A stretch of 64,000 nt of DNA from an uncultured Acidobacteriota bacterium (GCA_963777605.1 CAVZRV010000013.1:64001-128000); one strand, 5' to 3'. Shown: positions 7,362-24,078, counted from the first letter of the stretch. Notes: generated by a model from the letters alone, not told the origin. Made by a program: numbers and translations.

Positions 7362-7526
7362 TCGCCGGGCAGGCTGGCCGGCCGACATACCAGGCAGGGT
7401 TGCCTGGGGGTAATACAGGCTGCCAGCCTGTTGGGTTACACGGGCTGCCAGCCCGCGGACAGGAGAGGCGGTTCGGCCAGTCGCCGGGCAAGCTGCCCGG
7501 GCGACATCGCAGGCAAGGTTGCCTGG
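7362..7526. repeat. REP/BIME-like cluster of short palindromes
   Basis: Two ~46-nt units (7362-7407, 7481-7526: CGCCGGGCA.GCTG.CCGG.CGACAT..CAGGCA.GGTTGCCTGG) flank two GGCTGCCAGCC palindromes. A third copy is at 44642-44687. Confidence 0.75.
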
Positions 7527-7527
7527 A

Positions 7528-8526: not shown

Positions 8527-8724
8527 GGGAATCTTGCGGGTAAGTATATGCCAGAGATGTGGAATGAGGCTATTTTAGTAGGCTCCGGTTACAATAGTCG
8601 GAAAATTCCTTGCCCGGATATGAGTTGCCGGAATTGAAGGCCGGTGCTGTTTTCAGGTCAATCGCCGCAGGGAGCGGATCTCAGTTCCGGGGACTGAAGT
8701 CAGAGTTGCAGGAAAGGACGAAGC

Positions 8725-10386: not shown

Positions 10387-10392
10387 GTTCCG

Positions 10393-11610
10393 ATGGACGT
10401 GACGTTGGAGTGCGCTGATTTTCTGAGGCGCCTGATCCGGACCCCAGGCCTGCCCGGGGAAGAGGGCAATGTGGCAGAAGTGGTCGCCGGAGAGATGACG
10501 CGGCTGGGTTTTGACACCGTGGACCGGGACGGCGCGGGGAACATCATCGGGTTGGTGCGGGGAAACGGCCCGTCAGAGCCGATCATGCTCAATACCCACC
10601 TGGACCACGTTGCGGCTGGCGAGGAGAGCGAGTGGCCCTATCCCCCATTCGAGGGATCGGTGTCGGATGGCCGGATTTGGGGCCGGGGAGCTGTTGACAT
10701 CAAGGGACCACTCGCGGCGCAGGTTTACGCCGTGGGTGAACTGGCGCGGGCGGGCCGGAGGCCTCCCGGAGACGTGTGGGTCACCACGGTCGTGATGGAG
10801 GAAATTGGGGGTTTGGGTGCGCGCTACCTGGCTCGAAACCTGTTCACCAAATGTGTAATTGTCGGAGAGCCGAGCCGGAATCGGCTGATGCGAGGACACC
10901 GGGGCCGGACCGAGTTGCTTCTGACCGTCACGGGAAGGAGCGTTCACGCGAGCATTCCCGATCACGGAGTGAATCCGCTTGAAGTGACCGCGTCCTTCAT
11001 CTCGGCGATACCGGGACTCCCGCACCTGGTCGATGCCGAACTCGGACCGAGCAGTGTGGCCCCGACACTTTTCCGGACCGACCAGTCGAGCCCAAATGTC
11101 ATTCCCGGGCGAGCCTGGCTGACCTGCGACTGGCGCAATGTCCCAGGAGAGACCGGGGAGAGTATTCGCAAGTTGCTTCAGGAACTCGCCAACCGCTGTC
11201 TGATCGAGGGCGCGCGTGCCGAAGTCACCATTCCAGGCAGTGAGTTGACAACCTACACCGGATACCGGGAGTTCTCCCATTCCTACCACCCGTCATTTTG
11301 TCTCGGTCCGGAGGATCCCTCCTTGAAGGCGGCTGAAGCGGTTGTTGCTCGTGTTTTGGAAAGGCCGGCGAAAGCCGGAGTCTGGAAGTTTGCCACTGAC
11401 GGTGGCCACTTCGCGGAAGCTGGCATGAAAGTTCTGGGCCTGGGTCCGGGTGAGGAAACCCTGGCGCACACTGTGCGGGAGTCGATCGGCCTGGACGAGC
11501 TCGAAGAAGGCCGCCGATTGTACCAGGCCCTGGTCTGCGACGAGGCGTTTCGGCGCACGCAAGCCGGGGGTATCGGAACGCGGAACGGCCGAGACACGGC
11601 CGCGGGGTAA
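10393..11610 (+). CDS. M20 family metallopeptidase/deacylase (ArgE/DapE/YgeY-like)
   Basis: NTHLDHV, GRGAVDIKG, MEE, VGEPS, ATDG, AHT. Confidence 0.88.
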   Translation: MDVTLECADFLRRLIRTPGLPGEEGNVAEVVAGEMTRLGFDTVDRDGAGNIIGLVRGNGPSEPIMLNTHLDHVAAGEESEWPYPPFEGSVSDGRIWGRGAVDIKGPLAAQVYAVGELARAGRRPPGDVWVTTVVMEEIGGLGARYLARNLFTKCVIVGEPSRNRLMRGHRGRTELLLTVTGRSVHASIPDHGVNPLEVTASFISAIPGLPHLVDAELGPSSVAPTLFRTDQSSPNVIPGRAWLTCDWRNVPGETGESIRKLLQELANRCLIEGARAEVTIPGSELTTYTGYREFSHSYHPSFCLGPEDPSLKAAEAVVARVLERPAKAGVWKFATDGGHFAEAGMKVLGLGPGEETLAHTVRESIGLDELEEGRRLYQALVCDEAFRRTQAGGIGTRNGRDTAAG

Positions 11611-11634
11611 GGAACGCGCCCCCGGGTGCCTGCC

Positions 11635-11696
11635 CTCCCGGCTGTCGGTTGCGCGGACGCAGGCCCGGTGAGGGCCTGGCCGACAGAGCCGGGGAG
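11635..11696. terminator. Long GC-rich hairpin between convergent genes (possible bidirectional terminator or REP)
   Basis: CTCCCGGCTGTCGG ... CCGACAGAGCCGGGGAG with inner CAGGCCC-GGTGA-GGGCCTG stem; no clear U-tract. Confidence 0.4.
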
Positions 11697-11766
11697 AAGC
11701 GGTTCCCCCAACCGAGATCCCTCGACAAATCAAGAATAAGAAATCGTAGATCGTACGTGTCCCACG

Positions 11767-13020
11767 TCACGGCTTCCAGGGGCTGATTTGCCCGCTTTCC
11801 ATCTCCACCATGGTTACCGGGCGCGTGTTTTGACCGGTCAGGTCCCAGACGATCGGTCCGGCCGCCCCGGACCAAGAGAATTTGGCCCGCAGCGTGTCTC
11901 CAATCCGGGCCCGGTTGGCACCGGCTTCTCGCACGGCTTCTCCCAGGAGTTCGATGGCGTCGTAGGTCTGGGCGGCAGCGAAGTCCGCGGGGTGTCCGGT
12001 TTCTGACCGGAAACGCTTCGAAAACTCTTCCAGGGCTCCAAGGTCGGCCGGGAGGGGGAATATGAAGCGGTTGGACAGCCCCGCCGCCGCTTCGTGGAAG
12101 GATCGGCGGCCCATCGCCGAAGAGCCGTAAACAGGTCCGGAATAGATCGGCGCCAGGTGGCGCGCAACCTGCGCCGAAACCTGCGGATCCGCCAGGATCA
12201 CCAGGGTGGGCCGGACCGAGCCGGCGAGGAGTTGACGATTGAGGTTGGAGAGTTCGGTCTCGTCGCCTGTGGTGACGTTCAGGTGGTAGTGAAGCGCGCT
12301 CTCCCGCTTCGAGAGCGCTTCGAGGAATTCAGTCGTCACGGCGCGGGAGTCATGGTCGGTGGCGGAGATCAGGACGATGGTGTCGGTATGGCCGTTCTTC
12401 TCCAGCGTTTCGAGGAGCAACTCCATCTGGAGGTCATCGCCCGGCAGGCAGGAAAAGATCCACGGAACGTGGGCCATGTTGGCCGACCGGTCGGTCGATC
12501 CCGGGTTGAGCAGGGGCAGGCGGGCTTTGGCGACGATCTGCTCGGCCAGGTGCGCGGTAGGCCCGTCTACGCCGCCGATGATGGCCTGGATTCCGTCGTT
12601 GTAAACCATCCGCGCGATCTGCCCGACACCGCTGCCCCAGGGATTCTCCGACCACGCGGGAAGGAGTCGGAAGGGCAGCCCCCGGTAGCCGCCTCGAGCG
12701 TTGAGGTCGTCGATGGCCATTTGGGCAGCGGTCCAGGAATCACCATACAGTGGGTGATCGGGATCGGACGGCCCGAAGTAACCGATGCGGATCTCCGTAA
12801 GGCCCGGCGGGTCGATGTCATCCCGCCCGGGGCCATTGTAGTGGTGCAGGCTTGTTCGGCCGTCGAAGAACGGGCCCTCGGCCTGTCCAGCCAGAGCCGG
12901 TCGAATCAGGCAGCACAGCCCGGCCAAAACAACCAGGGCTCGGCAAATCTGGAGCCGGCTCGCCTGCCAATCGGACGGAGGGTTCGATTGGCGAACCCTC
13001 CGGCACCGGTCAGCGGTCAA
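11767..13020 (-). CDS. Periplasmic binding protein, type 1 (LivJ/LIVBP-like), last gene of the HZS-like operon
   Basis: Signal-peptide-like stretch, IRIGYFGP, AIDDLNARGG, AIIGG, AAQTYDA, GAAGPIVWD. Start codon uncertain. Confidence 0.85.
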   Translation of the reverse strand: MTADRCRRVRQSNPPSDWQASRLQICRALVVLAGLCCLIRPALAGQAEGPFFDGRTSLHHYNGPGRDDIDPPGLTEIRIGYFGPSDPDHPLYGDSWTAAQMAIDDLNARGGYRGLPFRLLPAWSENPWGSGVGQIARMVYNDGIQAIIGGVDGPTAHLAEQIVAKARLPLLNPGSTDRSANMAHVPWIFSCLPGDDLQMELLLETLEKNGHTDTIVLISATDHDSRAVTTEFLEALSKRESALHYHLNVTTGDETELSNLNRQLLAGSVRPTLVILADPQVSAQVARHLAPIYSGPVYGSSAMGRRSFHEAAAGLSNRFIFPLPADLGALEEFSKRFRSETGHPADFAAAQTYDAIELLGEAVREAGANRARIGDTLRAKFSWSGAAGPIVWDLTGQNTRPVTMVEMESGQISPWKP

Positions 13021-13032
13021 TGGCAGGCCGCT

Positions 13033-14497
13033 TCACGGCTGACCCGGTCCCGTTCCGGGACGATATCCTTGGGGGATATCGAGGTCTTCCCGCGTGTAGT
13101 AGTGCCAGGCGCCGTCCTTGAAGTGCGCCATGGCGACCGTCCCGACGTCATCCAGTGCCGCACTGAGGGCGATCTGCCCCGTCACGCCCGGCCATGGCTT
13201 GGACCTGTAGGCCAGCACGTCACGAACTTTGGCCCGATTCAATCCCGCCACCTGGACGGCCCAGATCAGCATATTCATTCCGTCGTAGGCGTGAGCCGCG
13301 TAAGTGTCCGCCTCGACACCGAAGCGTCTCCGGAAGATCTCCCGAAAAGCGGACAGCTTGGGATCTTTCCGGTCCGGGTTCCAGGGGTACATTGCCCAGA
13401 CTCCCTCGGCGTTCTGGCCGGCTATCTCGGTGAAAGTCGGGCGAGACGTGCCGGTCGGAGCCGAAGAACGGTTGCTTCATCCCCATCTTCCGCATCTGGT
13501 TGAGAATCATGGCCCCTTCCTGGGCATCTCCCCAGTGGACGATGGCGTCCGGATTGGTCGCCTTGAGGCGTTCCAGTTGAAGCGAGAAATCGGTGTCCCC
13601 GAGACGGTAGGCCATCTCCAGAACGACCGGCTTCTCCAGGCGCCGGCTGCCGTCCCGAACCTCGCGCACACCGAAGCGGCCGTACCGGTTGGAAGCCCGG
13701 ATGATCCCCACCCGTTGGTAGCCCATTTTTCGGTACAGGTAGTCCACCAAAAGGTAACCCATCTGCCGGTCGTCCCCGATACAGCGGAACACCCACGGGA
13801 TGTTCGTCTCGATAAAGGTCGGGTCGGTGTCGCCGGAGTTCATCATGGCAACCTCGGCCTTCAGAGCGACCCGGATCGCGATGTGGCTGTTGGCGCCGTC
13901 AATCGTGCCGAGAATCGCCCAAACCTTGTCGTTGTAAGCCATTTTGATGATCTCGTTGCCCGAGGCTCCCCACAGCCCGTTGTCGTTGGAGACGGCCAGT
14001 TCGAATGGAACCGACCGTTTCAGGTAGCCTCCCCGGGCATTGGCCTGTTCGATGGCCAGTCGGCTGCCCCGCATCATCTGGATTCCCAGGGGCTCTTCGT
14101 GGCTCTTGCCGCCGGTAGCGACCGAAACGGTGGACATTATGGGACCGATGAATCCGATCTTGACCGAATCGACATGCTCGGGTTCGGGGATCGCGCGCCC
14201 GGGTCCGGTGTACTCGATCTGAAGGAGGAAGTTCTCCTTGAAGGGTTTGACCCCGCTGAACGGTTCGACGTCGACGGCGGTTCCGGCGTAGTTCTCGTCC
14301 CGCTTCAGGTCAATTGGAGGAGTTTCATAGGCAGTGATGTTGTTGAGGATTTCCAGGACCTTGGCCACGGCCGGATCATCCACCGCGAAAGGAGGCAGGA
14401 GTTCATCCGGGGGCAGAATGTCCGGTCGTTTTGTCGCCTGGGCAAAGAGCCCGGACACGGTCAGGATGACGAAGAATACTCTGCAGACCAGTTTCAT
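13033..14497 (-). CDS. Periplasmic binding protein, type 1 (LivJ/LIVBP-like), +1 frameshift at ~13432
   Basis: Signal peptide, VKIGFIGP, AIEQANARGG, DTDFSLQL; C-terminus (AAHAYDG, GVTGQI) is in ORF 13033-13392. Confidence 0.85.
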
Positions 14498-14503
14498 GGC
14501 TAG

Positions 14504-15754
14504 TTACCTCCTCGCACTCGCCGGCCGGGCAGGAGATGTCGCTGCGGTCGGGGTCGTGGCGGCTGCGTCGGAGCCCTCCGGTTTGAGCCCGGCAAAGTAG
14601 TTCGTTCCGATCCCGTGGGCCAGGCCTTTCGACGTTCCGATCCAGACATCAGAACCGTCGAAATCTACTGCAAGCGTGTAGTTGTGGGGAATTCCGGTGG
14701 CGGTCTCAACCTCCTTCAGTACCTGTTTGTTGCGGGATACGATCGCCTTTCCCTTGTGGGTTTCCGGGTCCATCGTATAGGTGACCCACGTATCGGTATC
14801 AAAGTCGGTCACGGTCCCCACGCCCTTGTCGGTACAGAACCAGGCCTCCTGGGCGCTCCGCCCTTTGACGGCATTGATGAAGTCACTGGGAAGCCCGGTT
14901 TCCTGGTTGTAATAACCGCGCCAGTGTCGTCCGTCGTAGCGGCATCCCCCGAAGTAGGTCGAAACCCAGAGGATCTTGTCCACGTAGCTGACTCCGGTCG
15001 TGATGACGTGGACAATCCCGTCATCGCGATAGAGGTCGATCTCCATCTCACCGTCCGGGTCGAGGTAGTCTTTCCAGGTCCCGCGCGCGATGTCGTATTC
15101 GAGTACACCGCTTCCCCAGACACCGAGGTAGACAAGGCCGTCGTTGTAGGTGACACCGTAGTTCCAGATCTCCTCCATGGGCGCATTCTTCTCTGTAAAA
15201 ATGGCCCATTCGCCGGTAACGGTGTTGAATCGGCTCGCACCCGCGGTAGTCGCACACCAGACATTGTCGTGCTCGACGGCGACCCCGTAGACGACGTCGT
15301 TGACCAGTCCGCTGTTCAACTGGTGCCAGTGATCGAACCGGCCGGCGGTATAGCGCGCCAGGCCGCCGCCGAACAGGGCCAGCCAGACCTCCCCGGTCTT
15401 TGGGTTGACGGCGATCCAGGAGACCACCTTCCAGGGGAGACCATCCTCCATCGTCCAGGTCCGCTTGACCTTGCCGGCGACCTTGTCGATGAGGGCCAGG
15501 CCGTTCTCCGTGCCGACCCAAACGTCGTTGCCGTTGACGGTGACGGCGAAAATGTGGTCGTTTGGCAGCCCATCCTTGACCGTGAACTGCTGCCAGTCCC
15601 GGTAGATGTACGGCAGCGGTTCCTGCTCAGCCGCGGGCGGAACCAGCGCGGATTCAGCGAACGGCAGGGCCGGGATCGTAAACAGTATCGCCAGGACTGT
15701 CAGCAGAAAACGCGGGCATTCCTTGATGCTGACTGGGAATGATTGTCTGCTCAT
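14504..15754 (-). CDS. Secreted beta-propeller protein (two-component regulator propeller / ligand-binding sensor repeats) with no kinase domain
   Basis: Repeats DGLPNDHI..VWVGTENGL, DGLPWKVV..VWL, SGLVNDVV..VWCAT, TGLPSDFI..AWFCT, GIPHNYT..VWIGTSKGL. Confidence 0.85.
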   Translation of the reverse strand: MSRQSFPVSIKECPRFLLTVLAILFTIPALPFAESALVPPAAEQEPLPYIYRDWQQFTVKDGLPNDHIFAVTVNGNDVWVGTENGLALIDKVAGKVKRTWTMEDGLPWKVVSWIAVNPKTGEVWLALFGGGLARYTAGRFDHWHQLNSGLVNDVVYGVAVEHDNVWCATTAGASRFNTVTGEWAIFTEKNAPMEEIWNYGVTYNDGLVYLGVWGSGVLEYDIARGTWKDYLDPDGEMEIDLYRDDGIVHVITTGVSYVDKILWVSTYFGGCRYDGRHWRGYYNQETGLPSDFINAVKGRSAQEAWFCTDKGVGTVTDFDTDTWVTYTMDPETHKGKAIVSRNKQVLKEVETATGIPHNYTLAVDFDGSDVWIGTSKGLAHGIGTNYFAGLKPEGSDAAATTPTAATSPARPASARR

Positions 15755-15782
15755 AATTGAGTCCTCACCGATTCTTCTCGGA

Positions 15783-18635
15783 TCAGAACGTCTTGATGTA
15801 CTCAATCAGATCGTTCAGTTGATCCTTGGTCAGATCGTTCGTCACCCCATGCTTATCCTGGGGGTTGTGCACGGTCCAGATCTCCTCCAGCGTGGGTGCG
15901 ATCCCGTTGTGAAGGTAAGGCGCTGAGTCATAGATGTTGTTCAGATGGGGAACGTCAAAGAGCGCTTCCCGATCATAGGGCATCCGGGTTCCGACATCCA
16001 CCTGGGTTCGGTTCGTGTAGAGCGGAGGTGGATGACAGAAGACACACTGTCCGGTCTTGGGAATTTCCCGGCCGTCGCTGGTCATCGATCGCTCGAAGAC
16101 GGACTTGCCTCGTCGCTGGGCGGGAGTGAGTTCGGCTCCCAGAGGACGATAGCGGTTTGGTGGCCGCTGAATCATGGAAATGTAGAGATCCAATGCGGCC
16201 AGTTCGTCCGGGCTAAAAGGCTGGATTCGGGTGAAGAAGACAGCCAGGCGGGGACCGCATTGCCGCTGCAGGCTTGGGTTGGTACCTTCCCACTTGAACG
16301 GGGCGGTGTCCAGAATCCCGCGAAGCGTCCGGTTGTCCACGGGGCTCACGCCCACTCCATCCGGTTCGATGTCGTAAGTGACTCCGTCAACGTGGCCGTC
16401 CGGGTGGCAGGAGTGGCAGGAGAATTGGCGTCGGAAGGTGATTTTGGCATTGTGAAAGAGCTGTTCTCCCAAGCGTGCCTTGGTGATCTGCCTGGGTCCG
16501 CCAAGGTCCACGACTCCAGCTGGCTCGAGTCGCTTCATGTCGATAACCGTGAGGGAATCGTCCAGGCAATTGGCGACGAAAGCAGTGCTGCCGTCCGGCG
16601 TCACCCGAATTCCCCGCGGGCTCTTCCCGGTCGGGATCAGCTTCGCAATGAACTCGGTGGGCAGGCCCAGGTGATTGGGCAGAACGTTCTTGCGCTCTTC
16701 ATCGGATGCCGACTTGAGGATGCCGACCAGTTTGTTGAGATCGACCACCGCCACCCGGTCGAGGCTCGCGCTGGTCACCAGGGCATACTTTCCGTCCGGC
16801 GTGATCGTCAGGCCGGTGGGGTCGGGAAACGAGATGTCGGTCTGGTCGAGCAAGACCTGGTCCACGTGCCCGTCCTTCCAGGCGATCCCGATGCCGTTGG
16901 TGATGGTCCAGCCCTGGGTCAGCCTGGTCATGGGCACCAGGTTCTTGGTTCGGAGCATTACGAAGACGGCGTATTCCCCGCTCGGATGCCAGTCTACGCC
17001 GAGCAGGAGGTTCGTTCCCCGGGCGGTGTAGCGGTCGTCCACCTTCTCGGTCTTGGTATTGACCACGGTCAGTTCCGAGACACAGGGAGTCCGGAAGGGG
17101 ATAAACCGGGACAGGGCATTGGTCACGACGATCTGGCTGCCGTCGGGAGACAGGGACATCGCCCAGGGATACCGGCTTGCCGTCAGCCGGGACTTCTCGG
17201 TCAGTGAATCGCCATCCAGGATCGAGATGCTGTCCTCAGAGGAGTTGAGAACGTAAACGTCCCGGCCCATGCCGTCCATCTGGACGCCGTGTGGTTCGTC
17301 GCCGACGGGTACGGTGCGCAACACCTTCCGCGTCACCACATCGATCTCGCTCAAGCTGTCGTCGAGCCGGTTGGTGACGAGGACCCTCTTCCCGTCTGGG
17401 CTGAACGTCAGGTCATTGGGCTGGCCTCCGACCTGAATCTCGGCCACCTTCTGGCGCCTGGCGACATCCACAACGATGACCGAATCAGAGGTTTCGCAGG
17501 TGAGCCAGACTTCACGGCCGTTTGGAGAGACAACCAGGTTAAGAGGGTTCTTGTAGCGGATTTGCGCCACCGGTGCAGGGCGCTTTTTCGGGTGGGCGAT
17601 CGATTTCCACGCTGCTTCGTAGTCGAAGGATTTTCCGTGGGCATCGGCATGGCACTCCATGCACATGTCGCGATTGCCCAGTTTGAGGCCAGCCTCGCGG
17701 GCCGCCTCCTTGTCCAGCATGATGGCTTCGTGCTGGTAGTCGCTGCCGGGTCCATGGCACGACTCGCAGCCGACTCCCTCATCCAGGGTAAGCGACGGGA
17801 GAGCCTCGGACAGTTTTCCTCCGGTGGTGGCATGGCAGCGCAGGCACTTGGGGCTCTGTTGGGCTGGACCTTCGATCCCGGCCTGGCGAGCAATACCCTG
17901 GGCCGCCTCAGTGGCGAGGCGCCCATAGGCCTTGGCGTGCGGAGACATCTTCCAAATGCTGAATTGGTAACCCATCATGGCCGCGCGGTGGCACTGGGTG
18001 CAGGCCTGCACGCCGACGTAGTGAGGACCAGGGGTCGTTTCGTCCGCCGTCCCGGACAGGGCGGGCAGTTCCGTGAGTTCCGCCGAGTCCGGCGTCGGGT
18101 GAGCAATCCTGTTCCAGCCCTCGTCGATGTCCAGCTTGGGCAGGTTGTGGACTGCGACGTGCGATCCCTTCTCGTTGTGGCACATCTTGCAGTCGTTCTT
18201 GGTGATCTTCTTCAGCCCGGCCCGCATCGCGGCTGCGGGATCGCTCATGACCTCGGCGTCCATGTACTCGCTTCCGGGACCGTGACACTTTTCGCACTGG
18301 ACCCCGTCCTCGATGCGGAACCCGTCGTCATGTTCCCAGTCTTCGGCTTCCGCCCCGGTGGCATGGCATCCGAGACACACCGGTGACTCCTGCGGAACCT
18401 GGGGCACTCCGCTGAGGCGGGCAATTTCCAGGGCCTCCGACTTGGCCAGGACCGCGTAGGCCCGGCTGTGCTTGGTCATCAGCCACTTGCTGAACTGGTG
18501 GCCCATGGAAGGCCCGTCATGGCAGGTAGCGCAGGCCCGTGCCCCGACGTAGATGGGCTGGCGTTGCTGAGCCGCAGCGGAAACCAGAAGGCAGCTCATG
18601 CTCAGCAGGAATGGCAGCAGGGATTTGGAACGCAT
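15783..18635 (-). CDS. Decaheme fusion: tandem cytochrome c554-like domains + YVTN beta-propeller (hydrazine synthase beta-like) + diheme cytochrome c peroxidase-fold domain (hydrazine synthase gamma-like)
   Basis: Signal peptide MRSKSLLPF. Ten CxxCH: CATCH, CLGCH, CEKCH, CKMCH, CTQCH, CLRCH, CESCH, CMECH, CHSCH, CVFCH. Propeller repeats (VGGQP..FSPDGK). CCP-type motifs TAPFKWEG and VPHLNNIYDSAPYLHNG. Confidence 0.9.
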   Translation of the reverse strand: MRSKSLLPFLLSMSCLLVSAAAQQRQPIYVGARACATCHDGPSMGHQFSKWLMTKHSRAYAVLAKSEALEIARLSGVPQVPQESPVCLGCHATGAEAEDWEHDDGFRIEDGVQCEKCHGPGSEYMDAEVMSDPAAAMRAGLKKITKNDCKMCHNEKGSHVAVHNLPKLDIDEGWNRIAHPTPDSAELTELPALSGTADETTPGPHYVGVQACTQCHRAAMMGYQFSIWKMSPHAKAYGRLATEAAQGIARQAGIEGPAQQSPKCLRCHATTGGKLSEALPSLTLDEGVGCESCHGPGSDYQHEAIMLDKEAAREAGLKLGNRDMCMECHADAHGKSFDYEAAWKSIAHPKKRPAPVAQIRYKNPLNLVVSPNGREVWLTCETSDSVIVVDVARRQKVAEIQVGGQPNDLTFSPDGKRVLVTNRLDDSLSEIDVVTRKVLRTVPVGDEPHGVQMDGMGRDVYVLNSSEDSISILDGDSLTEKSRLTASRYPWAMSLSPDGSQIVVTNALSRFIPFRTPCVSELTVVNTKTEKVDDRYTARGTNLLLGVDWHPSGEYAVFVMLRTKNLVPMTRLTQGWTITNGIGIAWKDGHVDQVLLDQTDISFPDPTGLTITPDGKYALVTSASLDRVAVVDLNKLVGILKSASDEERKNVLPNHLGLPTEFIAKLIPTGKSPRGIRVTPDGSTAFVANCLDDSLTVIDMKRLEPAGVVDLGGPRQITKARLGEQLFHNAKITFRRQFSCHSCHPDGHVDGVTYDIEPDGVGVSPVDNRTLRGILDTAPFKWEGTNPSLQRQCGPRLAVFFTRIQPFSPDELAALDLYISMIQRPPNRYRPLGAELTPAQRRGKSVFERSMTSDGREIPKTGQCVFCHPPPLYTNRTQVDVGTRMPYDREALFDVPHLNNIYDSAPYLHNGIAPTLEEIWTVHNPQDKHGVTNDLTKDQLNDLIEYIKTF

Positions 18636-18651
18636 CAAGTCTGCTCTCCCT

Positions 18652-20289
18652 TCAGTTGGCGCCTTGAATGATTTTGAGAACCTGGTTGGCCGGGACATTC
18701 TCGAGTTTCTGGGTCTCTCCTCCCGGCCATCGAATCTCAATTGAGTCCACCTTCTGCGCTTTTCCCAGTCCGAAGTGGAGCCGGGAATCGACCTCTGAGA
18801 GGTATCCCCGGACGGGTTGAACGTTTTCGATTTGTCGCAGCGAATCAACCTGGACGGTGACCCGCGCGCCCAGAGCATCCCGCTCGGGGCCGGGGAGCTT
18901 CGGGACGACCTTAATCCAGTTGTTCTCGTTGCCACCGTCGTTGCGCAGCAACTTGGCGCGATCGTTCAGGTTGACGATCACCAAGTCGAGATCCCCGTCG
19001 TTGTCAAAATCGCCGAAGGTGGATCCCCGTCCAACCATTTTTACCCTGAAATAGTCTCCGGAGCGGTCGGAAACATCGTTGAAAACACCGGTGCCGTCGT
19101 TGTGAAGCAGCACATCCTCCTCGGTGTACTCGTGGTGAGCGTTGCCGTTGGAGACAAAGAGGTCGAGGTAGCCGTCATTGTCGTAGTCCACCAGGAGACC
19201 GCCCCAGCCGGTGTACTGACCGCAGGTGATGGCGACCTTGGAGCGGGTGGTCTGGTCTTCGAAGAACTCTCCCTGGTTCATTAGGAGACTGCTGTAGCCC
19301 ATGTCGGGGACGTAGATGTCCAGCAGTTGATTGCGGTCGATATCGCCCGGAAAGGGGCCCATCGAGGAAACGCCCTGTCCATGTTCGCCGAACGCCAAAC
19401 CCAGGAAGAGTCCCTTTTCGACGAAGGTCCCCTTTCCGGTGTTCTCGAAGTAGTAGTTTTCGGTGGCATCGTTGGCGACGTAGATGTCCATGTAGCCATC
19501 GCCGTTGAGATCGGCGGCGGTGGCACTCATGGCACGCCCGTTGTCCTTGAATACGCCTGCCTCACGGGCGACGTTAGTGAACGTGCCGTCGCCGTTGTTC
19601 CGATAGAGCGCATCGCTCTCGGCGCTGTAGCTCAGGGGGCCAGGGTAGCCGGCCGCGGCGTAGTAGGCCCGGAACTTTCCGTCATCGTAACGCAGGTAGT
19701 TGGCCACGTAGACGTCGAGGTCACCGTCATTGTCGTAATCGAGCCAGGGAGCGGAAAGGCTCCAGTTGGGGTCGGCCAGGCCCGCCTCTTTCGCAACGTC
19801 GGTAAACGTGCCGTCGCCGTTGTTCCGGTAGAGGACGTTCGAGCCGTAGTTCAAAACGTAGATGTCCACGTCCCCGTCGGCGTCGAAATCGACGGCGGAG
19901 CAGCCGAAGCTGGGACTTGGATCGCCAACCCCTGCCGAGTCGGTGACATCGGTGAAGGTGCCGTCCCCGTTGTTTCGGTAGAGATGGTTGAAGAGCTTTC
20001 CGCGCAGCTTCCGGCCACGGTTGTCGCTGATGGATTTGTCCCAGGAACCGTTCGGGAAGTAGAGGTCGAACCAGCCGTCGTTGTTGTAGTCGAGGAAGCA
20101 TGCCCCGGCACCGGTCCCCTCAACGATGTTGGTCAGGTCGAAATCGCCGAAGCTGTGTTTGAAGTCAATTCCCGCAGAGTCGGTGACGTCCACAAAAACC
20201 GGCAGGTTCGCCGGGTTCTGGGCCTGTCCCAGCGATCCGGCAATCGCCAGCGCGAACAAGAATAGGCATGGTCGGCGAAAGCACCTCAT
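18652..20289 (-). CDS. CRTAC1 family protein (FG-GAP/VCBS repeats + ASPIC/UnbV C-terminal domain)
   Basis: Multiple DxDxDGxxD Ca-binding repeats with LYRNNGDGTFTDV; C-terminal ALGARVTV..GYLS..RLHFGLG..IEIRWPGG. Confidence 0.92.
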   Translation of the reverse strand: MRCFRRPCLFLFALAIAGSLGQAQNPANLPVFVDVTDSAGIDFKHSFGDFDLTNIVEGTGAGACFLDYNNDGWFDLYFPNGSWDKSISDNRGRKLRGKLFNHLYRNNGDGTFTDVTDSAGVGDPSPSFGCSAVDFDADGDVDIYVLNYGSNVLYRNNGDGTFTDVAKEAGLADPNWSLSAPWLDYDNDGDLDVYVANYLRYDDGKFRAYYAAAGYPGPLSYSAESDALYRNNGDGTFTNVAREAGVFKDNGRAMSATAADLNGDGYMDIYVANDATENYYFENTGKGTFVEKGLFLGLAFGEHGQGVSSMGPFPGDIDRNQLLDIYVPDMGYSSLLMNQGEFFEDQTTRSKVAITCGQYTGWGGLLVDYDNDGYLDLFVSNGNAHHEYTEEDVLLHNDGTGVFNDVSDRSGDYFRVKMVGRGSTFGDFDNDGDLDLVIVNLNDRAKLLRNDGGNENNWIKVVPKLPGPERDALGARVTVQVDSLRQIENVQPVRGYLSEVDSRLHFGLGKAQKVDSIEIRWPGGETQKLENVPANQVLKIIQGAN

Positions 20290-22205
20290 TCATCCCCTCC
20301 TGAAAGTCTCTTCTGCTCCATCTCAACTGCGTTCTGCACCCGGGATCCGCCATGAGCACCCAGATCGATCCACTCAATCATCACCTGGGCGTGTGCCGGT
20401 TGCACCAGCGGTTTCCCCATATTGGGCGGGCCCTCGTTCTGATTCGGCACTGTCCCGTCCCAGGGAAGAGTAGTGATTTTGCCCAGGATGTGCCAGACCA
20501 GGGGACTGGTTCGGGCCCGGCCCGGGTCGATCCAGCGTTTTTCCCCGCCTTCCGAACCCGGGTTTCCGCCATTCAATCGCGCGTAAATTCTTGCGACATA
20601 CCCACTGGAATCCGTCCGGCCGTCGGGAGGACGGAAGTCCGCCCCCGAAGTTCCCCCGGAATGGCATGACTCGGTCGTGCATCCCTTCTGGATAACCGGA
20701 AGGACATCCCGCTGGAAATCGACATAGCGGCGCAGGTGGGCGGGCGCGGTCAGCCGGACGGGAGGCTTCTTCACCGCATCGACAAACCGGTTGTCCGGGA
20801 CCAGTTCTCCGTCTTCGTGGCAGCCGATGCATCCACGAGGTTCCTTGTTCCTGGCCCAGATCCAGCCGCAACTCTTGAGGGACATCCCCTTGTCGTCAAT
20901 GAGTTGCAGCTGGACCGGCGTGTTGGCCGGCACCTCGAAGAAGACGGAGCCGTCGGCTTCCAGGGGAACCTCACCGAGGATACGTTTGGGAATCATCGAA
21001 TCCCTGGATTCGGAATGAGCCGGCAGGCCCTCGAGGACGCGCACGCGCCTGGCGAGGGACTGCAGTTGTGTCCCATTCTTCAGATCGTTGATGCCGACGT
21101 TGAGGCAGTAGAACTGCCCGAAGGGATGGTTCTCGTTGACCACGCTGGAGCGGCCGTCGGGTTGGGGGCGAGCTTTGACTAGGCGCCCGTAAAGCAGGTT
21201 GCTGGATGAACTGGACAGCCAGGGCGTGAAGGTCCCGCTTTCCGGGTCCAGTTTCACGACTTCGAAACGTGAAGAGCCGGCCGAGGCTTTCCGGGAAACC
21301 AGGATCGAACCGTCCGGAAGCGGGGCGGGGGAGTAGAAAATCCCCTCTGCCGGCCCGGTGAGTCTTCGATAGGTGTGCATCGGGCGCCGAAGCGAGACCG
21401 AGCCCAGGGTTCCCCCGATGGCCCCCGCGTCGAGAGCCGATTCGACGAACACGGCCAGGTCATGGGTCGTCACCGTGGGCATTTGCTGGACCGGCGATCC
21501 CTGCAAGCCGGAAAAGGCGACCAGGTCGGTGCCGTCAACGTTCATGTTGAAGATCCGGGTCTGGCCGGCATCGCTTGCAGCAGTCCCGGCCCGCCGGCTC
21601 GAGAAGAGGATGCGACCGTCCCAACAAAGGAAGGGATCTTCGTCGGAGGACGGGTTATAGGTGATCCGCTTGATCTCGCTCCCGTCGAGTTGGCAGGAAT
21701 AAAGGTTGAGGGCTTTGCCGGTGCCCCGCTCGTTGTACTCACCTGCCGCGTCACTGACAAAGAGGATCTGAAGCCACGGCTCGTTCGCCGTGATGATGTA
21801 GTAGGCTGACAGGTAGATCGGAGAGCGACAGTTTCCGGAGTCGCGGGTGACCTGCCGGGTCTTTCCCGAATCAATCTCGTACTCGAAAATGTTCCAGGGT
21901 TCGCCGGCTGAGGGCCTTCCGGAAAAAAGGATCCGCTTCCCGTCGTAGGAGACGTCAGGTTCGCAGGCGCTCTCGAAACCCTTGCTGACGGCAACCGTTC
22001 GGCCGTCCGGATAGCGCAGTACTAAGCGGGCCCCGTCACAGACCTCGGAACGCTGAACTTTTGCCGGGGAGACGGAAGGCGGAAGCGCTCGTGCTTCCAC
22101 CAGGACGGTTGGTTCGGGGGGGGCGGGGGATTGCGCCCAGACCAACCCCGACACTCCGAAAACGATGAGAGAGAAAGAGAGGAGACCTCGCATTTCACGA
22201 GTCAT
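20286..22205 (-). CDS. Hydrazine synthase alpha subunit-like protein (TolB-like propeller + HZS-alpha middle domain + c-type heme domain)
   Basis: PDVSYDGKRILFS propeller; RILGEVPLEADGSVFFEVPANTPVQLQLID middle-domain signature; CIGCH; VDFQRDVLPVIQKG-CTTESCH. Its stop overlaps the next start (ATGA). Confidence 0.85.
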   Translation of the reverse strand: MTREMRGLLSFSLIVFGVSGLVWAQSPAPPEPTVLVEARALPPSVSPAKVQRSEVCDGARLVLRYPDGRTVAVSKGFESACEPDVSYDGKRILFSGRPSAGEPWNIFEYEIDSGKTRQVTRDSGNCRSPIYLSAYYIITANEPWLQILFVSDAAGEYNERGTGKALNLYSCQLDGSEIKRITYNPSSDEDPFLCWDGRILFSSRRAGTAASDAGQTRIFNMNVDGTDLVAFSGLQGSPVQQMPTVTTHDLAVFVESALDAGAIGGTLGSVSLRRPMHTYRRLTGPAEGIFYSPAPLPDGSILVSRKASAGSSRFEVVKLDPESGTFTPWLSSSSSNLLYGRLVKARPQPDGRSSVVNENHPFGQFYCLNVGINDLKNGTQLQSLARRVRVLEGLPAHSESRDSMIPKRILGEVPLEADGSVFFEVPANTPVQLQLIDDKGMSLKSCGWIWARNKEPRGCIGCHEDGELVPDNRFVDAVKKPPVRLTAPAHLRRYVDFQRDVLPVIQKGCTTESCHSGGTSGADFRPPDGRTDSSGYVARIYARLNGGNPGSEGGEKRWIDPGRARTSPLVWHILGKITTLPWDGTVPNQNEGPPNMGKPLVQPAHAQVMIEWIDLGAHGGSRVQNAVEMEQKRLSGGDE

Positions 22206-22311
22206 ACAACAAATCCTGAATAGACTCGACCCGCCGCGTGCTCGTTGGCCATGAGAGTGAGGCACTCGGGCCGAATGACAGTGTCTCGGTCTCGGAATCG
22301 CAGAAGACGAA

Positions 22312-22899
22312 CTACTCTTCCCGCTTCAGCATCGCAATGGCCTCGATCTCGACAAGCAGATCCTCACGGCAAAGCCTGGCCTGGATTCCGACACTCGCCG
22401 GCAGAGGGCTCAGTTCGAGGTAATTGAAGAAGGCGTTTCGGACCCGGTTGAATTCTTCGTAATCGCGCTCGATATCACGCAGATAGCAGGTGCATTTCAC
22501 GATATCGCGCCAGGTTGCCCCCTGGGCGGTGAGCAGTTCGGTGATATTCCGGTAGGTACGCCAGCACTGGGCGCGAAAATTGCCTTTGTGGACCGTGTCT
22601 CCTTTTTCGTCGACACTGGCGGTTCCCGAAATGAAAATCAGGTCGTGGTTGCCCATCTCGATGCGAAGGCCGCGCGAGAAGGCCGAACCGTAGTCATACG
22701 CTTCGTTCAGGACGGTGGAGGCGGAGACCGCCTGCCGTGTGACGGACGTGAACCCCGGTTGGTGTGCGACCTCGAGCAACGGTCGAACTGAGCCAGAAGA
22801 AGAGAGCAGGCCGAGAGCGACCAATTCCTGTCTTTCACCTTTAGTCAGGTTGCCAAATCCCGCCAGAATGTCGTCGCGCACGCTCACCAATGTGCTCAT
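22312..22899 (-). CDS. Rid (YjgF/YER057c/UK114) family protein, FkbO/Hyg5 chorismatase-like subtype
   Basis: SAFSRG, IFISGTAS, LCREDLLVEIEA; first gene of the operon, no signal peptide. Confidence 0.8.
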   Translation of the reverse strand: MSTLVSVRDDILAGFGNLTKGERQELVALGLLSSSGSVRPLLEVAHQPGFTSVTRQAVSASTVLNEAYDYGSAFSRGLRIEMGNHDLIFISGTASVDEKGDTVHKGNFRAQCWRTYRNITELLTAQGATWRDIVKCTCYLRDIERDYEEFNRVRNAFFNYLELSPLPASVGIQARLCREDLLVEIEAIAMLKREE

Positions 22900-23384
22900 T
22901 TACCGGTCCCTCCCAATCAGCATGTTTAAGAAGTACAGAATTCACCCACGGCTTCAGAACAGCAAGATCAGTGCCAGCATTCCAACTTTCTGAACGGAGC
23001 CCTCTAAGCCCTGAAAAAGAAATAGTTTATATAAAAAGTACGGTTTGCCGGGCCGCGCCTCGTGGAAAGCCTGTTCATAGATTCTATGGGCACCGGGATA
23101 CAAGCCGGCACCCTGGACCGGTCGGGCCCGCGGCAACAGGGAGCCGACTAACTTGTGGCGAATGAGTAGATTAGCCTTGAAGCCCTGAAGAAGGGCGGCT
23201 CCCGCATATACATGAGATGTAATTCGTACAATATGTGTTAACTCAAGATCTACATCGCGCGTTGGGGATTTGGTTTTCGGTCGCCGGCCCGAACCATCGG
23301 TGTTATGATGCTCTCCTGCCGCCCGGCGGGACCATTTTGACTTGAGCCCGACCACGTCCTTTCATATGATCTAACCTGCGGATC

Positions 23385-23400
23385 TTTGATTACTTTCAAA
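23385..23400. promoter_or_regulatory. Putative CRP/FNR-family binding site
   Basis: TTTGATtactTTCAAA matches TTGAT-N4-ATCAA at 9/10. A -10-like TATACG is at 23421-23426, followed by an AGGAGG RBS and ATG at 23449. Confidence 0.45.
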
Positions 23401-23448
23401 CGGTCTTTGGGAATCTACCGTATACGGAAAAAGACTAGGAGGATTTGA

Positions 23449-24078
23449 ATGCCCAAAGAGAAGAAGCCTGAGATGAGCAGCTCCGGCCTGTCCCGAAGAG
23501 ACTTCTTCAGAAGCGGCACCGTGGCCGGCATGTCGGCGGCACTGGTTTCGCAGAAGTCAGGGCTGGCCAAGAGTGAGGCGGGAACCCAGATTCTGGGCCC
23601 GGACCCGGTGCCAATCAGACTGATCGTCAATGGAAAGCAGCTCAATCTCAAGGTCGAGCCGCGGGTCACCCTGCTGGACGCATTGCGCAACGACCTGGGA
23701 ATAACCGGTGCAAAGAAGGTTTGTGACCGTGGAACGTGTGGTGCGTGCACGGTACTTCTTGACGGAAAGCCGGTTTACTCCTGCTCGGTGTTCGCGATCG
23801 AAGCGCAGGGAAAAGACATCGTCACCGTTGAGGGCCTCGGCACTCCCGACAAGATGCACCCGATACAGGAGGCGTTCGTGGATCACGACGCCCAGCAGTG
23901 CGGGTTCTGTACTTCGGGATTCGTGGTTGCCAGCAAGGCATTTCTGGACAAGAACCCGAATCCGAGCCTGGAGGATATCAACAAGGGTTTGGGCGGTAAC
24001 CTGTGCCGTTGCGGAACCTACGCCGGAATCCGCGGTGCAATCCTGCAGGCGGCTGGGAAAGGAGGAGACAATGCCTGA
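23449..24078 (+). CDS. Xanthine dehydrogenase/aldehyde oxidoreductase family 2Fe-2S subunit with Tat signal (PaoA/YagT-like)
   Basis: SRRDFF twin-arginine motif; GAKKVCDRGTCGACTV; QCGFC; NLCRCG. Confidence 0.93.
   Translation: MPKEKKPEMSSSGLSRRDFFRSGTVAGMSAALVSQKSGLAKSEAGTQILGPDPVPIRLIVNGKQLNLKVEPRVTLLDALRNDLGITGAKKVCDRGTCGACTVLLDGKPVYSCSVFAIEAQGKDIVTVEGLGTPDKMHPIQEAFVDHDAQQCGFCTSGFVVASKAFLDKNPNPSLEDINKGLGGNLCRCGTYAGIRGAILQAAGKGGDNA

Follow-up and report, generated by a model that had tools for sequence, protein, structure and literature searches.

The seven genes of Table 1 raise the question of whether a bacterium outside the anammox group carries a hydrazine synthase (HZS) and, if not, what an operon of this architecture encodes. 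They lie in a window of 64,000 nucleotides from an uncultured Acidobacteriota bacterium (GCA_963777605.1, CAVZRV010000013.1:64001-128000), where the first-pass annotation had described them as co-oriented at these coordinates and given each a domain label. All seven ORFs are indeed on the minus strand, from 22899 to 11767, and Pfam and NCBIfam agree on the seven labels. The operon is genuine; it encodes a periplasmic complex with twelve haems and an architecture like that of anammox hydrazine synthase. We put a probability of about 0.9 on the reading that its proteins are homologous to HzsA and HzsB/C, assemble in the predicted HZS-like manner, carry a cytochrome c554-type electron wire, are exported to the periplasm and do not make hydrazine.

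Table 1. Genes of the operon and features within them (window positions)
Feature	Position	Strand	Remarks
Rid/YjgF protein (FkbO C-terminal-like)	22312..22899	-	195 aa, no signal peptide; accessory, non-core
HZS-alpha-like dihaem protein	20286..22205	-	639 aa from ATG at 22205
Haem alphaI motif CIGCH	20831-20817	-	middle domain of alpha-like protein
Haem alphaII motif CTTESCH (CX4CH)	20681-20661	-	C-terminal domain of alpha-like protein
ATGA overlap	20286-20289	-	alpha stop / CRTAC1 start
CRTAC1-family FG-GAP/UnbV_ASPIC propeller protein	18652..20289	-	545 aa, signal peptide
Decahaem fusion	15783..18635	-	950 aa, signal peptide
Two cytochrome c554-type tetrahaem modules	about 18557-17589	-	in decahaem gene
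HZS-beta-like seven-bladed propeller	about 17555-16521	-	in decahaem gene
HZS-gamma/CCP-like dihaem domain	about 16520-15786	-	in decahaem gene
Reg_prop-type beta-propeller protein	14504..15754	-	416 aa, signal peptide; fifth core gene
SBP1, HAAT-family (Peripla_BP_6)	13033..14497	-	1-nt frameshift near 13438 in assembly
SBP2, HAAT-family (Peripla_BP_6)	11767..13020	-	417 aa from TTG

The genes had been said to be separated by 28 bp or less from the alpha-like gene onward, with one ATGA overlap. This holds at the start codons chosen here: 16 bp separate CRTAC1 from the decahaem gene, 28 bp the decahaem gene from the Reg_prop propeller gene and 6 bp the latter from SBP1, and the SBP1-SBP2 gap is 12 bp only when SBP1 is read through its frameshift. 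For the decahaem gene the ATG at 18635 was taken as the true start, not that of a 1050-aa ORF, and the alpha start was fixed by a database protein of 639 aa; the Rid-alpha gap is 46-106 bp. The claimed twelve c-haem motifs stand as a total, but only 11 are canonical. The fusion has ten CxxCH motifs, eight of them N-terminal, and alpha has one CxxCH and one expanded CX4CH. Six proteins have signal-peptide-like hydrophobic N-termini in the translations as judged by eye, in line with the annotation, and export of the complex to the periplasm is a strongly supported prediction.

All three HZS subunit architectures had been reported at this locus, and significant sequence homology bears this out. 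The alpha-like protein consists of a TolB-like propeller, an HZS_alpha middle domain (Pfam 5.1e-21) and a C-terminal domain, and phmmer matches it to chain 5c2v_A at 1.8e-34 in four stretches within chain residues 53-766. Its best structural match is likewise HZS and not an unrelated propeller: an AlphaFold model (pLDDT 81.1) finds 5C2V first among PDB entries in Foldseek (5c2v_D, E 1.2e-34, TMq 0.69) over its whole length, with TolB second (4.8e-14). Alignment, Foldseek and motifs all show the three-domain alpha architecture with both haem sites. The RGCIGCHED block is kept in all 37 aligned rows; across the same rows the alphaII motif is retained as CX4CH or CXXCH, the former in 13 including the window.

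On the decahaem protein Pfam recognizes Cytochrome_C554 (6.9e-31, two stretches), a YNCE propeller and CCP_MauG, and its PDB matches are 5c2v_B (3.4e-37), 5c2v_C (1.1e-18) and cytochrome c554 (1bvb, 1.2e-8). It has more than 3493 database relatives at E<=1e-5, the best 120 of which are 66-92% identical. Homology of the window's alpha, beta and gamma to the HZS subunits, beyond similarity of fold, is strongly supported. The gamma-like domain also appears to share its fold, two CxxCH motifs and, by alignment, an inter-haem Trp with the dihaem cytochrome c peroxidases and MauG (PF03150, 25.6 bits, equal to the cut-off; PDB CCP matches 1e-5 to 1e-2). It differs from them in occupying one polypeptide with a propeller and an octahaem module, and in a gammaI haem that keeps the HZS-type extra Cys. 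The two tandem tetrahaem modules match Cytochrome_C554 and resemble Nitrosomonas cytochrome c554 (PDB 1BVB/1FT5). The latter is a free carrier accepting electrons from HAO; the window's modules form the N-terminal part of an enzyme subunit, in a genome without HAO. There is strong support for the view that these modules wire electrons to the gamma haems from within the same protein. Since eight haems are c554/MtrC-like, with matches to Mtrc-MtrF_II-IV_dom (2.1e-9) and to GSU2203/DmsE-type decahaem families, and sediment and soil lineages carry the cluster, one might picture a periplasmic or surface conduit that exchanges electrons with extracellular or insoluble acceptors such as metals and humics, for which the propellers and binding proteins are a scaffold. 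We consider this quite improbable: neither the cluster nor its flanking families contain a recurrent outer-membrane porin or MtrB-like gene, and two HZS-type catalytic haem pockets and a tunnel-side beta segment are strictly conserved, which would not be expected of a mere wire.

An interface between alpha and beta-gamma, the subject of one check proposed by the annotation, is predicted with an ipSAE of 0.72 (runs of 0.72, 0.74 and 0.70) against 0.00 for the best of three controls, with partner pLDDT of at least 74 and contacts that agree at 83% or more. The prediction spanned residues 330-635 of alpha and 361-950 of beta-gamma. Of 80 solved complexes 58 pass the interface mark of the tool, as do 2 of 110 mismatched pairs. 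Contacts are predicted between alpha 450-470 and beta 562-571, beta 650-657 and gamma 758-763. Because it resembles the solved complex 5C2V, the predicted interface may owe its score to the tool's prior exposure to that structure. The models strongly support a predicted assembly of alpha and beta-gamma as in HZS, in which the invariant beta segment RTKNLVPMTR would pack against the alpha stretch around and after haem alphaI.

A gene-neighbourhood survey, also proposed at the outset, found the order conserved in Acidobacteriota and Planctomycetota (Pirellulales, Thermoguttaceae, Phycisphaerae, Sedimentisphaerales) and in one locus each from Anaerolineales, Deltaproteobacteria and Verrucomicrobia. 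Among loci with room, alpha is present in 59/59, CRTAC1 between alpha and decahaem in 66/66, the propeller gene in 66/67 and SBP1 in 60/61, while a non-overlapping recount places SBP2 after SBP1 in 48/51 (it is missing in L015, L019 and L037). The six-gene core is complete in 45/45 loci with room, a tally that over-credits SBP2 via paralogue cross-hits and includes those same three loci. The Reg_prop propeller gene belongs to this conserved core. Chance cannot account for the arrangement, as the same order and strand in relatives of several phyla is far beyond it. The non-haem partners are as conserved as the haem proteins, at 55-81% identity across phyla. Identity is 58-73% to 80 loci of identical architecture, against 39% to a clade III-type paralogue in the same genome and 27-29% to HzsB/C, which lends indirect support to a placement in the published clade I discussed below. 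Four outcomes had been named beforehand as counting against the first-pass reading (unrelated best structural matches, no predicted interface, an order not conserved elsewhere, a genuine anammox host), and none of them was observed.

Gene order and residue features assign the operon to the clade I HZS homologues that Hagglund et al. 2025 described (Genome Biol Evol, PMC12758564), a gene cluster that is widespread and has been in print since 2025. Clade I carriers in that paper include Aquisphaera giovannonii, Thermogutta terrifontis, Novipirellula artificiosorum, Syntrophobacter fumaroxidans, Paludibaculum fermentans and Opitutus terrae. The first-pass annotation did not recognize the partner set from anammox clusters, and it does differ from the HZS partners, but it had already been published: the clade I description includes CRTAC1, the pair of binding proteins and the eight additional haems, whose novelty is largely gone (PMC12758564). 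Shared with published clade I are an upstream alpha with both haem sites and a C-terminal domain of about 100 aa, CRTAC1/FG-GAP between alpha and beta-gamma, a beta-gamma fusion to which two N-terminal c554 domains add eight haems, a downstream pair of genes for ABC-type binding proteins, Trp in the gamma-His144 position, Cys at gamma-165, and the absence of Tyr591, Cys303, His772 and the beta-loop Glu (PMC12758564). The window host is another organism, among uncultured Acidobacteriota MAGs, and the Reg_prop propeller and Rid genes go unmentioned in main-text sections of PMC12758564 on these clusters. What is added here is the six-gene core count, the propeller gene in the core, a second, clade III-type cluster in the host and the probable assembly frameshift in SBP1. 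Phycisphaerae UBA1845 MAGs also have hzsA-like genes upstream of fused hzsBC-like genes in non-Brocadiales genomes, and the idea of a wider HZS-like enzyme family with other substrates was raised for them (Dalcin Martins et al. 2023, PMC10732223). Compared by description, hzsA-like lies directly upstream there, without CRTAC1 between (PMC10732223).

Compared with the Kuenenia stuttgartiensis enzyme (PDB 5C2V/5C2W; HzsA, HzsB, HzsC), the complex has the same three-domain alpha, seven-bladed beta propeller, CCP-fold dihaem gamma, third Cys link of gammaI and predicted alpha/beta-gamma interface at the alphaI side. However, identity is only 22-29%, catalytic and ligand residues are unconserved, a single beta-gamma chain carries eight additional haems, gamma has 10-aa and 35-aa deletions, and the partners differ, without hdh, hao or an anammoxosome context. 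In alpha, CSGCHDGSY of six true HzsA aligns with CIGCHEDGE, which lacks Tyr591 (13 clade I rows displayed including the window; 37 aligned), and in the phmmer alignment the Cys303 column falls within a 5-residue deletion of the window protein. Neither the Cys303/His587 zinc site nor the proximal Tyr591 ligand of HZS alphaI was found in the aligned window alpha, and where six true HzsA have the VMHDK His, the distal His772 of the bis-His haem alphaII, the clade I rows show no His. From the alignment we infer that alphaI of the window family would be His-ligated and five-coordinate. In gamma, FRHEG aligns with FKWE, replacing His144 by Trp, and Cys165, the third covalent link of gammaI, is retained (13/13 clade I rows against four true HzsC); W782 and C793 of the decahaem protein are invariant across 37 rows. 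Gamma-Asp168 aligns with Leu (MAFFT) or Arg (phmmer), and with Asp in neither. In beta, PVCEAENG of four true HzsB aligns with PMTRLTQG, which lacks the Glu (the Mg ligand in HZS), in 13/13 clade I rows. We take this segment to be the beta tunnel loop, following the published description and, reportedly, Dietl 2015. Absence of the HZS-specific catalytic residues Tyr591, Cys303, His772, gamma-His144, gamma-Asp168 and the beta-loop Glu is thus strongly supported by the alignments. It indicates that the complex does not make hydrazine. The first-pass annotation had suggested, as a possibility, N-N, N-O or C-N chemistry on an organic substrate brought by the binding proteins; the lost residues speak against HZS-type formation of an N-N bond.

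The NCBIfam models (NF052339-NF052342) point the same way. Alpha reaches 149.3 bits against a cut-off of 800, and the decahaem protein 201.6 against 1250 for hydrazine_BC, 157.3 against 560 for beta and 79.8 against 625 for gamma, whereas true HzsA, found in 17/401 Planctomycetota genomes, scores 1518-1606 bits. The host genome (6.73 Mb, 96.7% complete) groups with uncultured Acidobacteriota MAGs. Since no protein in it reaches an HZS cut-off and its sole match to the HAO/HDH family (PF13447) is the decahaem protein itself, the host, a soil-type bacterium, is not an anammox organism, as had been suggested. The genes around the operon are heterotroph-like, with fadD-like, GH20 and glgP genes confirmed. 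A genuine divergent hydrazine synthase, in a cryptic anammox or hydrazine-producing host, would explain the full alpha plus beta-gamma architecture, the Scalindua-like fusion and the HZS-like interface prediction. With the sub-cut-off scores, the lost residues, a genome without HAO/HDH and a gene order reversed relative to hzsCBA (PMC12758564), we consider this identity hardly credible, and the published analysis likewise concluded that the homologues are not hydrazine synthase (PMC12758564).

What the complex does instead can only be proposed tentatively. In HZS the Tyr-ligated alphaI is not reducible and gammaI binds NO (JBC 2025, PMC12607021); loss of the Tyr in the clade I family would turn alphaI into a redox site. 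Judging from sequence, the complex is possibly, at less than even odds, a two-site, tunnel-linked reductase of a small nitrogen oxide (NO, perhaps nitrite or hydroxylamine). The N-oxide would be reduced at the gammaI-type haem, with its third covalent Cys link, and an intermediate would be handed internally to haem alphaI. AlphaI without the HZS tyrosine is predicted in print to have a canonical haem-c pocket, as inferred from a model of the S. fumaroxidans homologue; a reducible alphaI would complete the reduction to ammonium rather than condense hydroxylamine with ammonia, and HZS would have evolved from such a reductase when alphaI became non-reducible. In favour of a reductase, the second, clade III-type cluster of the host has a separate nine-haem cytochrome gene in the place of the clade I fused wire. 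On the other hand, the gammaI pocket is unlike that of HZS (His144 is Trp, Asp168 is lost), and the Trp fits peroxide chemistry too. The queries used found no NirK, NarG or NosZ in the host genome and an NrfA-like match that is marginal, so the host has no evident supply of NO or nitrite of its own. Nor does a reductase explain what two binding proteins of the amino-acid/amide type, CRTAC1 and an additional propeller would do, conserved as they are.

These partners have recognizable relatives. CRTAC1 matches FG-GAP_3 (2.5e-51), UnbV_ASPIC (2.3e-25) and cartilage acidic protein 1 (PDB 9etn, 1.4e-23). The Reg_prop propeller (Pfam Reg_prop 1.8e-6) matches Bacteroides hybrid two-component sensor propellers (PDB 3v9f and 4a2l, ~1e-14), and its all-beta model (pLDDT 84.7, pTM 0.81) finds the BT4663/BT3049 sensor domains first in Foldseek (E 1.7e-13, TMq 0.58). 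SBP1 matches Peripla_BP_6 at 8.3e-23 over profile positions 15-222 only, after an N-terminal extension of about 110 aa, and has the HAAT-family entries 4mlc and 4gnr as nearest solved relatives. The more divergent SBP2 matches the full profile (3.3e-26) and 4mlc (9.6e-12). Depositors name the nearest solved relatives of both branched-chain amino acid or Leu/Ile/Val binding proteins. We regard CRTAC1, the propeller and SBP1/SBP2 as putative conserved periplasmic accessory subunits or substrate-handling partners. It is a doubtful but wider proposal that all six proteins (alpha-like, CRTAC1, c554-beta-gamma decahaem, Reg_prop propeller and an SBP1/SBP2 heterodimer) form an unrecognized periplasmic nitrogen-transforming system, the functional ancestor of HZS, with the three non-haem partners as integral subunits. 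Such a module might convert NO, nitrite or hydroxylamine to ammonium via a channelled intermediate, or couple an N-oxide with an organic amine that the binding proteins hold; if real, it would have a wide distribution among Acidobacteriota and Planctomycetota of soils and sediments.

The binding proteins also invite an oxidative reading, in which a CCP/MauG-type machine oxidises organic nitrogen, whether as an amino acid, an amine or a small amide. The gamma dihaem would be activated by peroxide or yield electrons via the c554 wire, SBP1/SBP2 would capture the substrate and present it to alpha, and cytoplasmic Rid/FkbO-like or C-N hydrolase enzymes would process the products. Trp at the gamma-His144 position is a hallmark of CCP and MauG (PMC12758564), and the gamma domain has CCP_MauG, MbnH and MauG-like matches, all weak. 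The HAAT-family binding proteins come with no permease or ATPase gene within the cluster, and in L057 a single 829-aa ORF encodes SBP1 joined to SBP2. Such a machine nevertheless seems unlikely. GammaI keeps a third Cys link that is specific to HZS and missing from CCP and MauG, and the carriers include strict anaerobes such as S. fumaroxidans, where peroxide-driven catabolism is improbable (PMC12758564). In favour of the oxidative reading, a Rid/FkbO-like gene is upstream on the same strand in 19 of the 54 loci with room; against it, Rid is cytoplasmic and absent from the other 35. The window's Rid matches Ribonuc_L-PSP (6.4e-21), with NCBIfam Rid and FkbO/Hyg5 matches below cut-off; clustering separates a short form, in 7 fetched loci and the window, from a long FkbO-like form in 8 loci. 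Also in favour, a gene named by eye as C-N hydrolase-like follows SBP2 in 6 loci.

The interruption of SBP1 is probably an assembly frameshift. As assembled, the gene runs from 14497 to 13220 and encodes 425 aa with an aberrant C-terminus, while intact relatives have about 490 aa. Residues 55-410 and 389-516 of the relative in L009 match the two SBP1 frames at 80% identity each, with the switch near 13438, and a soil-metagenome contig over 13336-13487 (a single contig, depth 2.2) has one base fewer at 13438.

The hydrazine-synthase-like operon reported in the first-pass annotation is present in the window as seven co-oriented ORFs on the minus strand, between 22899 and 11767. Major features are summarized in the table below. 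From the alpha-like gene onward the spacing is as tight as was claimed (28 bp or less), with an ATGA overlap followed by gaps of 16, 28, 6 and 12 bp. The decahaem fusion starts at the ATG at 18635, which is preceded by GGGAGAG; the start of a longer, 1050-aa ORF is not the true one. The count of 12 haem motifs needs one amendment. Ten CxxCH motifs in the fusion and CIGCH in the alpha-like protein stand as read, while the twelfth is an expanded CTTESCH (CX4CH), also in the alpha-like protein. At this site, alphaII, 13 of 37 aligned rows carry CX4CH (mostly Acidobacteriota-labelled MAGs, and the window) and the others CXXCH; the expanded putative haem-binding motif is kept within the CX4CH subgroup. 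A scan of 11000-24000 for promoters and terminators was uninformative, with 5 promoter-like sites where 2.5 +/- 1.9 would be expected and 9 terminator-like sites where the expectation is 10.8 +/- 3.4.

Features of the operon and other window features discussed in the text, in window coordinates. All seven operon genes were assigned with Pfam and NCBIfam. Partner counts are from the 80 best related loci, restricted to those with enough flank (room) for the partner.
Feature	Coordinates	Strand	Assigned by	Partner present / loci with room
Rid/YjgF protein, FkbO-like similarity	22899-22312	-	Pfam and NCBIfam	
Alpha-like protein, PD40/TolB-like repeats and HZS_alpha middle domain (E 5.1e-21)	22205-20286	-	Pfam and NCBIfam	59/59
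AlphaII motif, alpha-like residues 505-511 (635-aa form)	20681-20661	-		
CRTAC1-type FG-GAP/UnbV_ASPIC protein	20289-18652	-	Pfam and NCBIfam	66/66
Decahaem fusion, 950 aa: two cytochrome c554 modules, YNCE/YVTN propeller, CCP_MauG-like end	18635-15783	-		
Reg_prop-type propeller	15754-14504	-		66/67
SBP1, Peripla_BP_6 binding protein	14497-13033	-		60/61
SBP1 frameshift, 1 nt, near 13438	13425-13445	-		
SBP2, Peripla_BP_6 binding protein	13020-11767	-		48/51 (non-overlapping assignment)
Xanthine-dehydrogenase-family molybdenum enzyme genes (MoCoBD and FAD subunits), divergent from the operon	23708-27177	+		
glgP, first ORF (Pfam Phosphorylase positions 4-296)	2125-3396	+		
glgP, second ORF (Pfam Phosphorylase positions 295-713)	3194-4654	+		

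[quoted passage not shown] In phmmer searches the sole match of the alpha-like protein is 5c2v_A, from the Kuenenia stuttgartiensis HZS structure (1.8e-34, in four stretches from chain residues 53 to 766), and the decahaem fusion matches 5c2v_B (3.4e-37), 5c2v_C (1.1e-18) and cytochrome c554 (1.2e-8). Modelled with AlphaFold from the 37-row alignment (pLDDT 81.1, pTM 0.84), the alpha-like protein finds its best PDB matches in the chains of 5C2V (E 1.2e-34, TMq 0.69), followed by TolB at 4.8e-14 over the propeller only. The multimer check proposed in the first-pass annotation also returns an alpha/beta-gamma interface, with an ipSAE of 0.72 (the best of three controls reached 0.00), partner pLDDT of at least 74 and contact agreement of at least 83%; it took in beta-gamma residues 361-950 and, from alpha, the middle and C-terminal domains (330-635). 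This score passes the tool's mark, which is also passed by 58 of 80 solved complexes and by 2 of 110 mismatched pairs. Because a similar complex has already been solved, the pass shows likeness and may reflect what the predictor had learnt from that structure. The predicted contact places alpha 450-470 (CIGCH and the residues following it) against the invariant beta segment RTKNLVPMTR (562-571); the HzsB segment that aligns with it we take to be the tunnel loop. That the alpha-like and beta-gamma proteins form an exported complex built like HZS is strongly supported, as are the fused octahaem wire as a part of it and two candidate catalytic haems, gammaI, which has the extra Cys link, and alphaI. 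That such a complex, wire included, is purely an electron conduit is improbable.

Judged from its sequence, the operon product is not a hydrazine synthase. NCBIfam scores lie far below the cut-offs (149 against 800, 202 against 1250, 157 against 560 and 80 against 625); true HzsA was found in 17 of 401 sampled Planctomycetota genomes, at 1518-1606 bits, and four of these 17 supplied the HzsB and HzsC reference sequences. In the alpha-like protein, CSGCHDGSY of HZS aligns with CIGCHEDGE and there is therefore no Tyr591; the column of Cys303 is deleted, and His772 has no counterpart. A Met in place of alpha-His772 appeared in the phmmer pairwise alignment only, and was dropped, the column being unconserved (M, I, other) in alignments of 37 and 43 rows. 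The beta segment reads PMTRLTQG where HzsB has PVCEAENG, and lacks the Glu. In gamma, FRHEG of HzsC becomes FKWE and His144 is therefore Trp; Cys165 is kept, Asp168 is not Asp, and there are deletions of 10 and 35 aa relative to HZS. A charge reversal of gamma-Asp168 to Arg was likewise seen with phmmer only and rejected; MAFFT with four true HzsC pairs the Asp with Leu. In the genome, which is 96.7% complete at 6.73 Mb in 53 contigs, no HAO/HDH-family genes were found besides the decahaem itself. For all the shared architecture, a true hydrazine synthase would be a great surprise.

The partner set, presented in the first-pass annotation as unrecognised, is already in print. Hagglund et al. 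2025 (PMC12758564) looked for homologues of HZS and sorted the co-localised alpha and beta-gamma genes into four clades. Cultured carriers named in print include Paludibaculum fermentans, Thermogutta terrifontis, Opitutus terrae and Syntrophobacter fumaroxidans. As far as the accessible text of that paper goes, the gene order and predicted proteins of our operon match its clade I feature by feature: alpha lies upstream, with both haem sites, and is separated from beta-gamma by a CRTAC1-family FG-GAP gene; two c554 domains give beta-gamma eight extra haems; two ABC-type binding-protein genes follow downstream; and the key residues of HZS are lost, with Trp at gamma-His144 and Cys at gamma-165. 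In the same portions of text the homologues are concluded not to be hydrazine synthases and no function is put forward, and the Reg_prop propeller gene is not mentioned. Dalcin Martins et al. 2023 (PMC10732223), in the text available, reported an hzsA-like gene beside a fused hzsBC-like gene in Phycisphaerae MAGs and proposed that a broader family of enzymes acts on other substrates. No other descriptions or functional studies of the family were found in the literature searched. The operon is real and was well read, yet it belongs to an already published family.

What the complex may do can be approached from its candidate catalytic haems. In HZS, the Tyr-ligated alphaI is reported, in the accessible part of PMC12607021, not to be reducible, and gammaI to bind NO; for alphaI, a model of the Syntrophobacter fumaroxidans homologue pointed to a canonical haem-c pocket, according to the text seen of PMC12758564. 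Lacking the Tyr, our alphaI is likewise predicted to have a canonical haem-c pocket. The simplest reading is that a small N-oxide would be reduced in two steps, with the intermediate channelled and ammonium rather than hydrazine as the end product; we give it a probability of about 0.3-0.35. Several points tell against it. The host has no recognisable nitrite- or NO-producing enzymes: NirK, NarG and NosZ were not found in the genome with the queries used, and an NrfA-like match is marginal. Trp at the position of His144 is a feature of CCP/MauG proteins. N-oxide reduction also gives no role to the binding proteins, to CRTAC1 or to the extra propeller.

These partners are nevertheless nearly constant. 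The gene order is conserved elsewhere, a gene-neighbourhood survey recovering the same order and strand across related loci in other genomes. The sole locus without the propeller and SBP1, L038, is a second copy. A count of 51/52 for SBP2 was discarded, being inflated by cross-hits between the SBP1 and SBP2 paralogues. The six-gene core was scored complete in 45/45 loci with room for all six, a tally that over-credits SBP2 from the same cross-hits and includes three loci (L015, L019 and L037) without SBP2 by the non-overlapping recount. The propeller was modelled at pLDDT 84.7, and the model is similar to the periplasmic sensor propellers found in hybrid two-component systems of Bacteroides. 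In a Phycisphaerae MAG (L057:14001-16487), a single uninterrupted ORF of 829 aa joins SBP1 and SBP2, the SBP2 part having no signal peptide of its own; this hints that they work as a pair.

Rid is an accessory gene, found upstream in 19/54 loci. Its short form (~195 aa) occurs in seven fetched loci and the window (22312-22899), and a two-domain FkbO/Hyg5-like form (~376 aa) in eight loci, mostly Pirellulales (e.g., L020:4321-5448). Beyond the six core families, the flank survey, in which several "families" are antisense ORF artefacts, yielded only a TPR protein, FkbO-like/Rid, a C-N hydrolase-like protein and lineage-specific neighbours. The TPR-like protein (assigned by eye) lies between two extra CRTAC1 paralogues (36-43% identity) in 16 loci; this group is on the opposite strand downstream of SBP2 in Planctomycetota loci, e.g., L020:17341-22123, L026, L033, L035 and L057. 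The C-N hydrolase-like protein (~340 aa, nitrilase/amidase family by eye) follows SBP2 directly, on the opposite strand, in six loci (L020:16265-17284, L026, L028, L033, L049 and L057). Such neighbours bear on the main rival to N-oxide reduction, in which the SBP pair would deliver an organic nitrogen compound whose oxidation is driven by peroxide or through the wire. The nearest solved relatives of the SBPs are named amino-acid binding proteins, the cluster contains no permease gene, and the Rid/FkbO-like and C-N hydrolase-like genes recur, although they are not universal. We regard this oxidation as unlikely, if less so than a mere conduit; the rest of the probability goes to something else.

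The same genome carries a second HZS-like cluster (L088, on its contig C30:24000-40000, positions 118-11712, plus strand). It consists of CRTAC1, an alpha-like protein that is short (406 aa) and has one haem, a beta-gamma-like protein, a Reg_prop propeller and one SBP. Ahead of these genes stand those for a nine-haem cytochrome, a histidine kinase (HAMP/HisKA_3) and a LuxR-type response regulator. Its beta-gamma has 39% identity to that of the window and an extra N-terminal CxxCH, and its C-terminus looks frameshifted before the gammaII haem motif. The gene order is that of clade III in the accessible text of PMC12758564, and the separate multihaem cytochrome takes the place of the fused c554 wire of clade I. 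Given the shared make-up, CRTAC1, alpha, beta-gamma, propeller and SBP form a unit conserved across both clusters.

By the decahaem protein, the nearest loci (72-73% identity) are MAGs labelled Acidobacteriota, and the molybdenum enzyme and other flank genes of the window are syntenic in up to five of them. The large-subunit molybdenum enzyme gene is syntenic in L007, L008, L009, L012 and L023, and the FAD-subunit gene in L008, L009 and L012. The decahaem gene is present in 5/6 other genomes of the host's GTDB family. Of 401 genomes sampled across the phylum, 24 have a match at E<=1e-50; the full-length decahaem form is seen in only 10 of these (the window's genome counted), the others having beta-gamma-only paralogues of ~700 aa. 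At E<=1e-5, and among 8000 scored candidates each, the database contains more than 3493 relatives of the beta-gamma type and 1392 of the alpha type, the top 120 of the former at 66-92% identity and ~950 aa. In a one-genome-per-species collection, 387/434 pattern-matched stretches encode a relative.

To our knowledge, hydrazine synthase has long been held to have no relatives, and its origin is therefore an open question in nitrogen-cycle evolution. The window is a clean, complete example of its closest known relatives, outside Planctomycetota. The family has many members, is strongly conserved and bears on how anammox arose; the literature searched assigns it no function. Its function, once worked out, would reveal chemistry that preceded anammox, and the family could add a common but unrecognised reaction to nitrogen or redox cycling in soil and sediment. 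With the cluster already in print, the window's own contribution is incremental.

Both SBP genes of the first-pass annotation are present, but SBP1 is broken by a frameshift, a reading based on a close relative whose matches fall in two frames, each at 80% identity. One short soil-metagenome contig, possibly from the source sample, covers 13336-13487 and has exactly one base fewer at 13438 (depth 2.2, single contig). A more divergent contig of the same metagenome run differs at two more single bases, 13024 and 13062. This DNA run shares a small fraction of its words with the sequence (0.11), and no RNA run with the sequence was listed; two other runs of that study yielded mostly 90-95% fragments, stacked on FG-GAP repeats from other organisms, and were left out. 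The split of glgP over two overlapping ORFs is probably another indel in the assembly, and a beta-gamma paralogue on another contig of the genome is also split over two frames. Since all three genes are split, we read the breaks as assembly indels, not pseudogenes. In two loci of other genomes (L061:6543-8314 and L063:13895-15152) an alpha-like or SBP1 homologue is matched as two adjacent pieces, which suggests frameshifts in those assemblies too.
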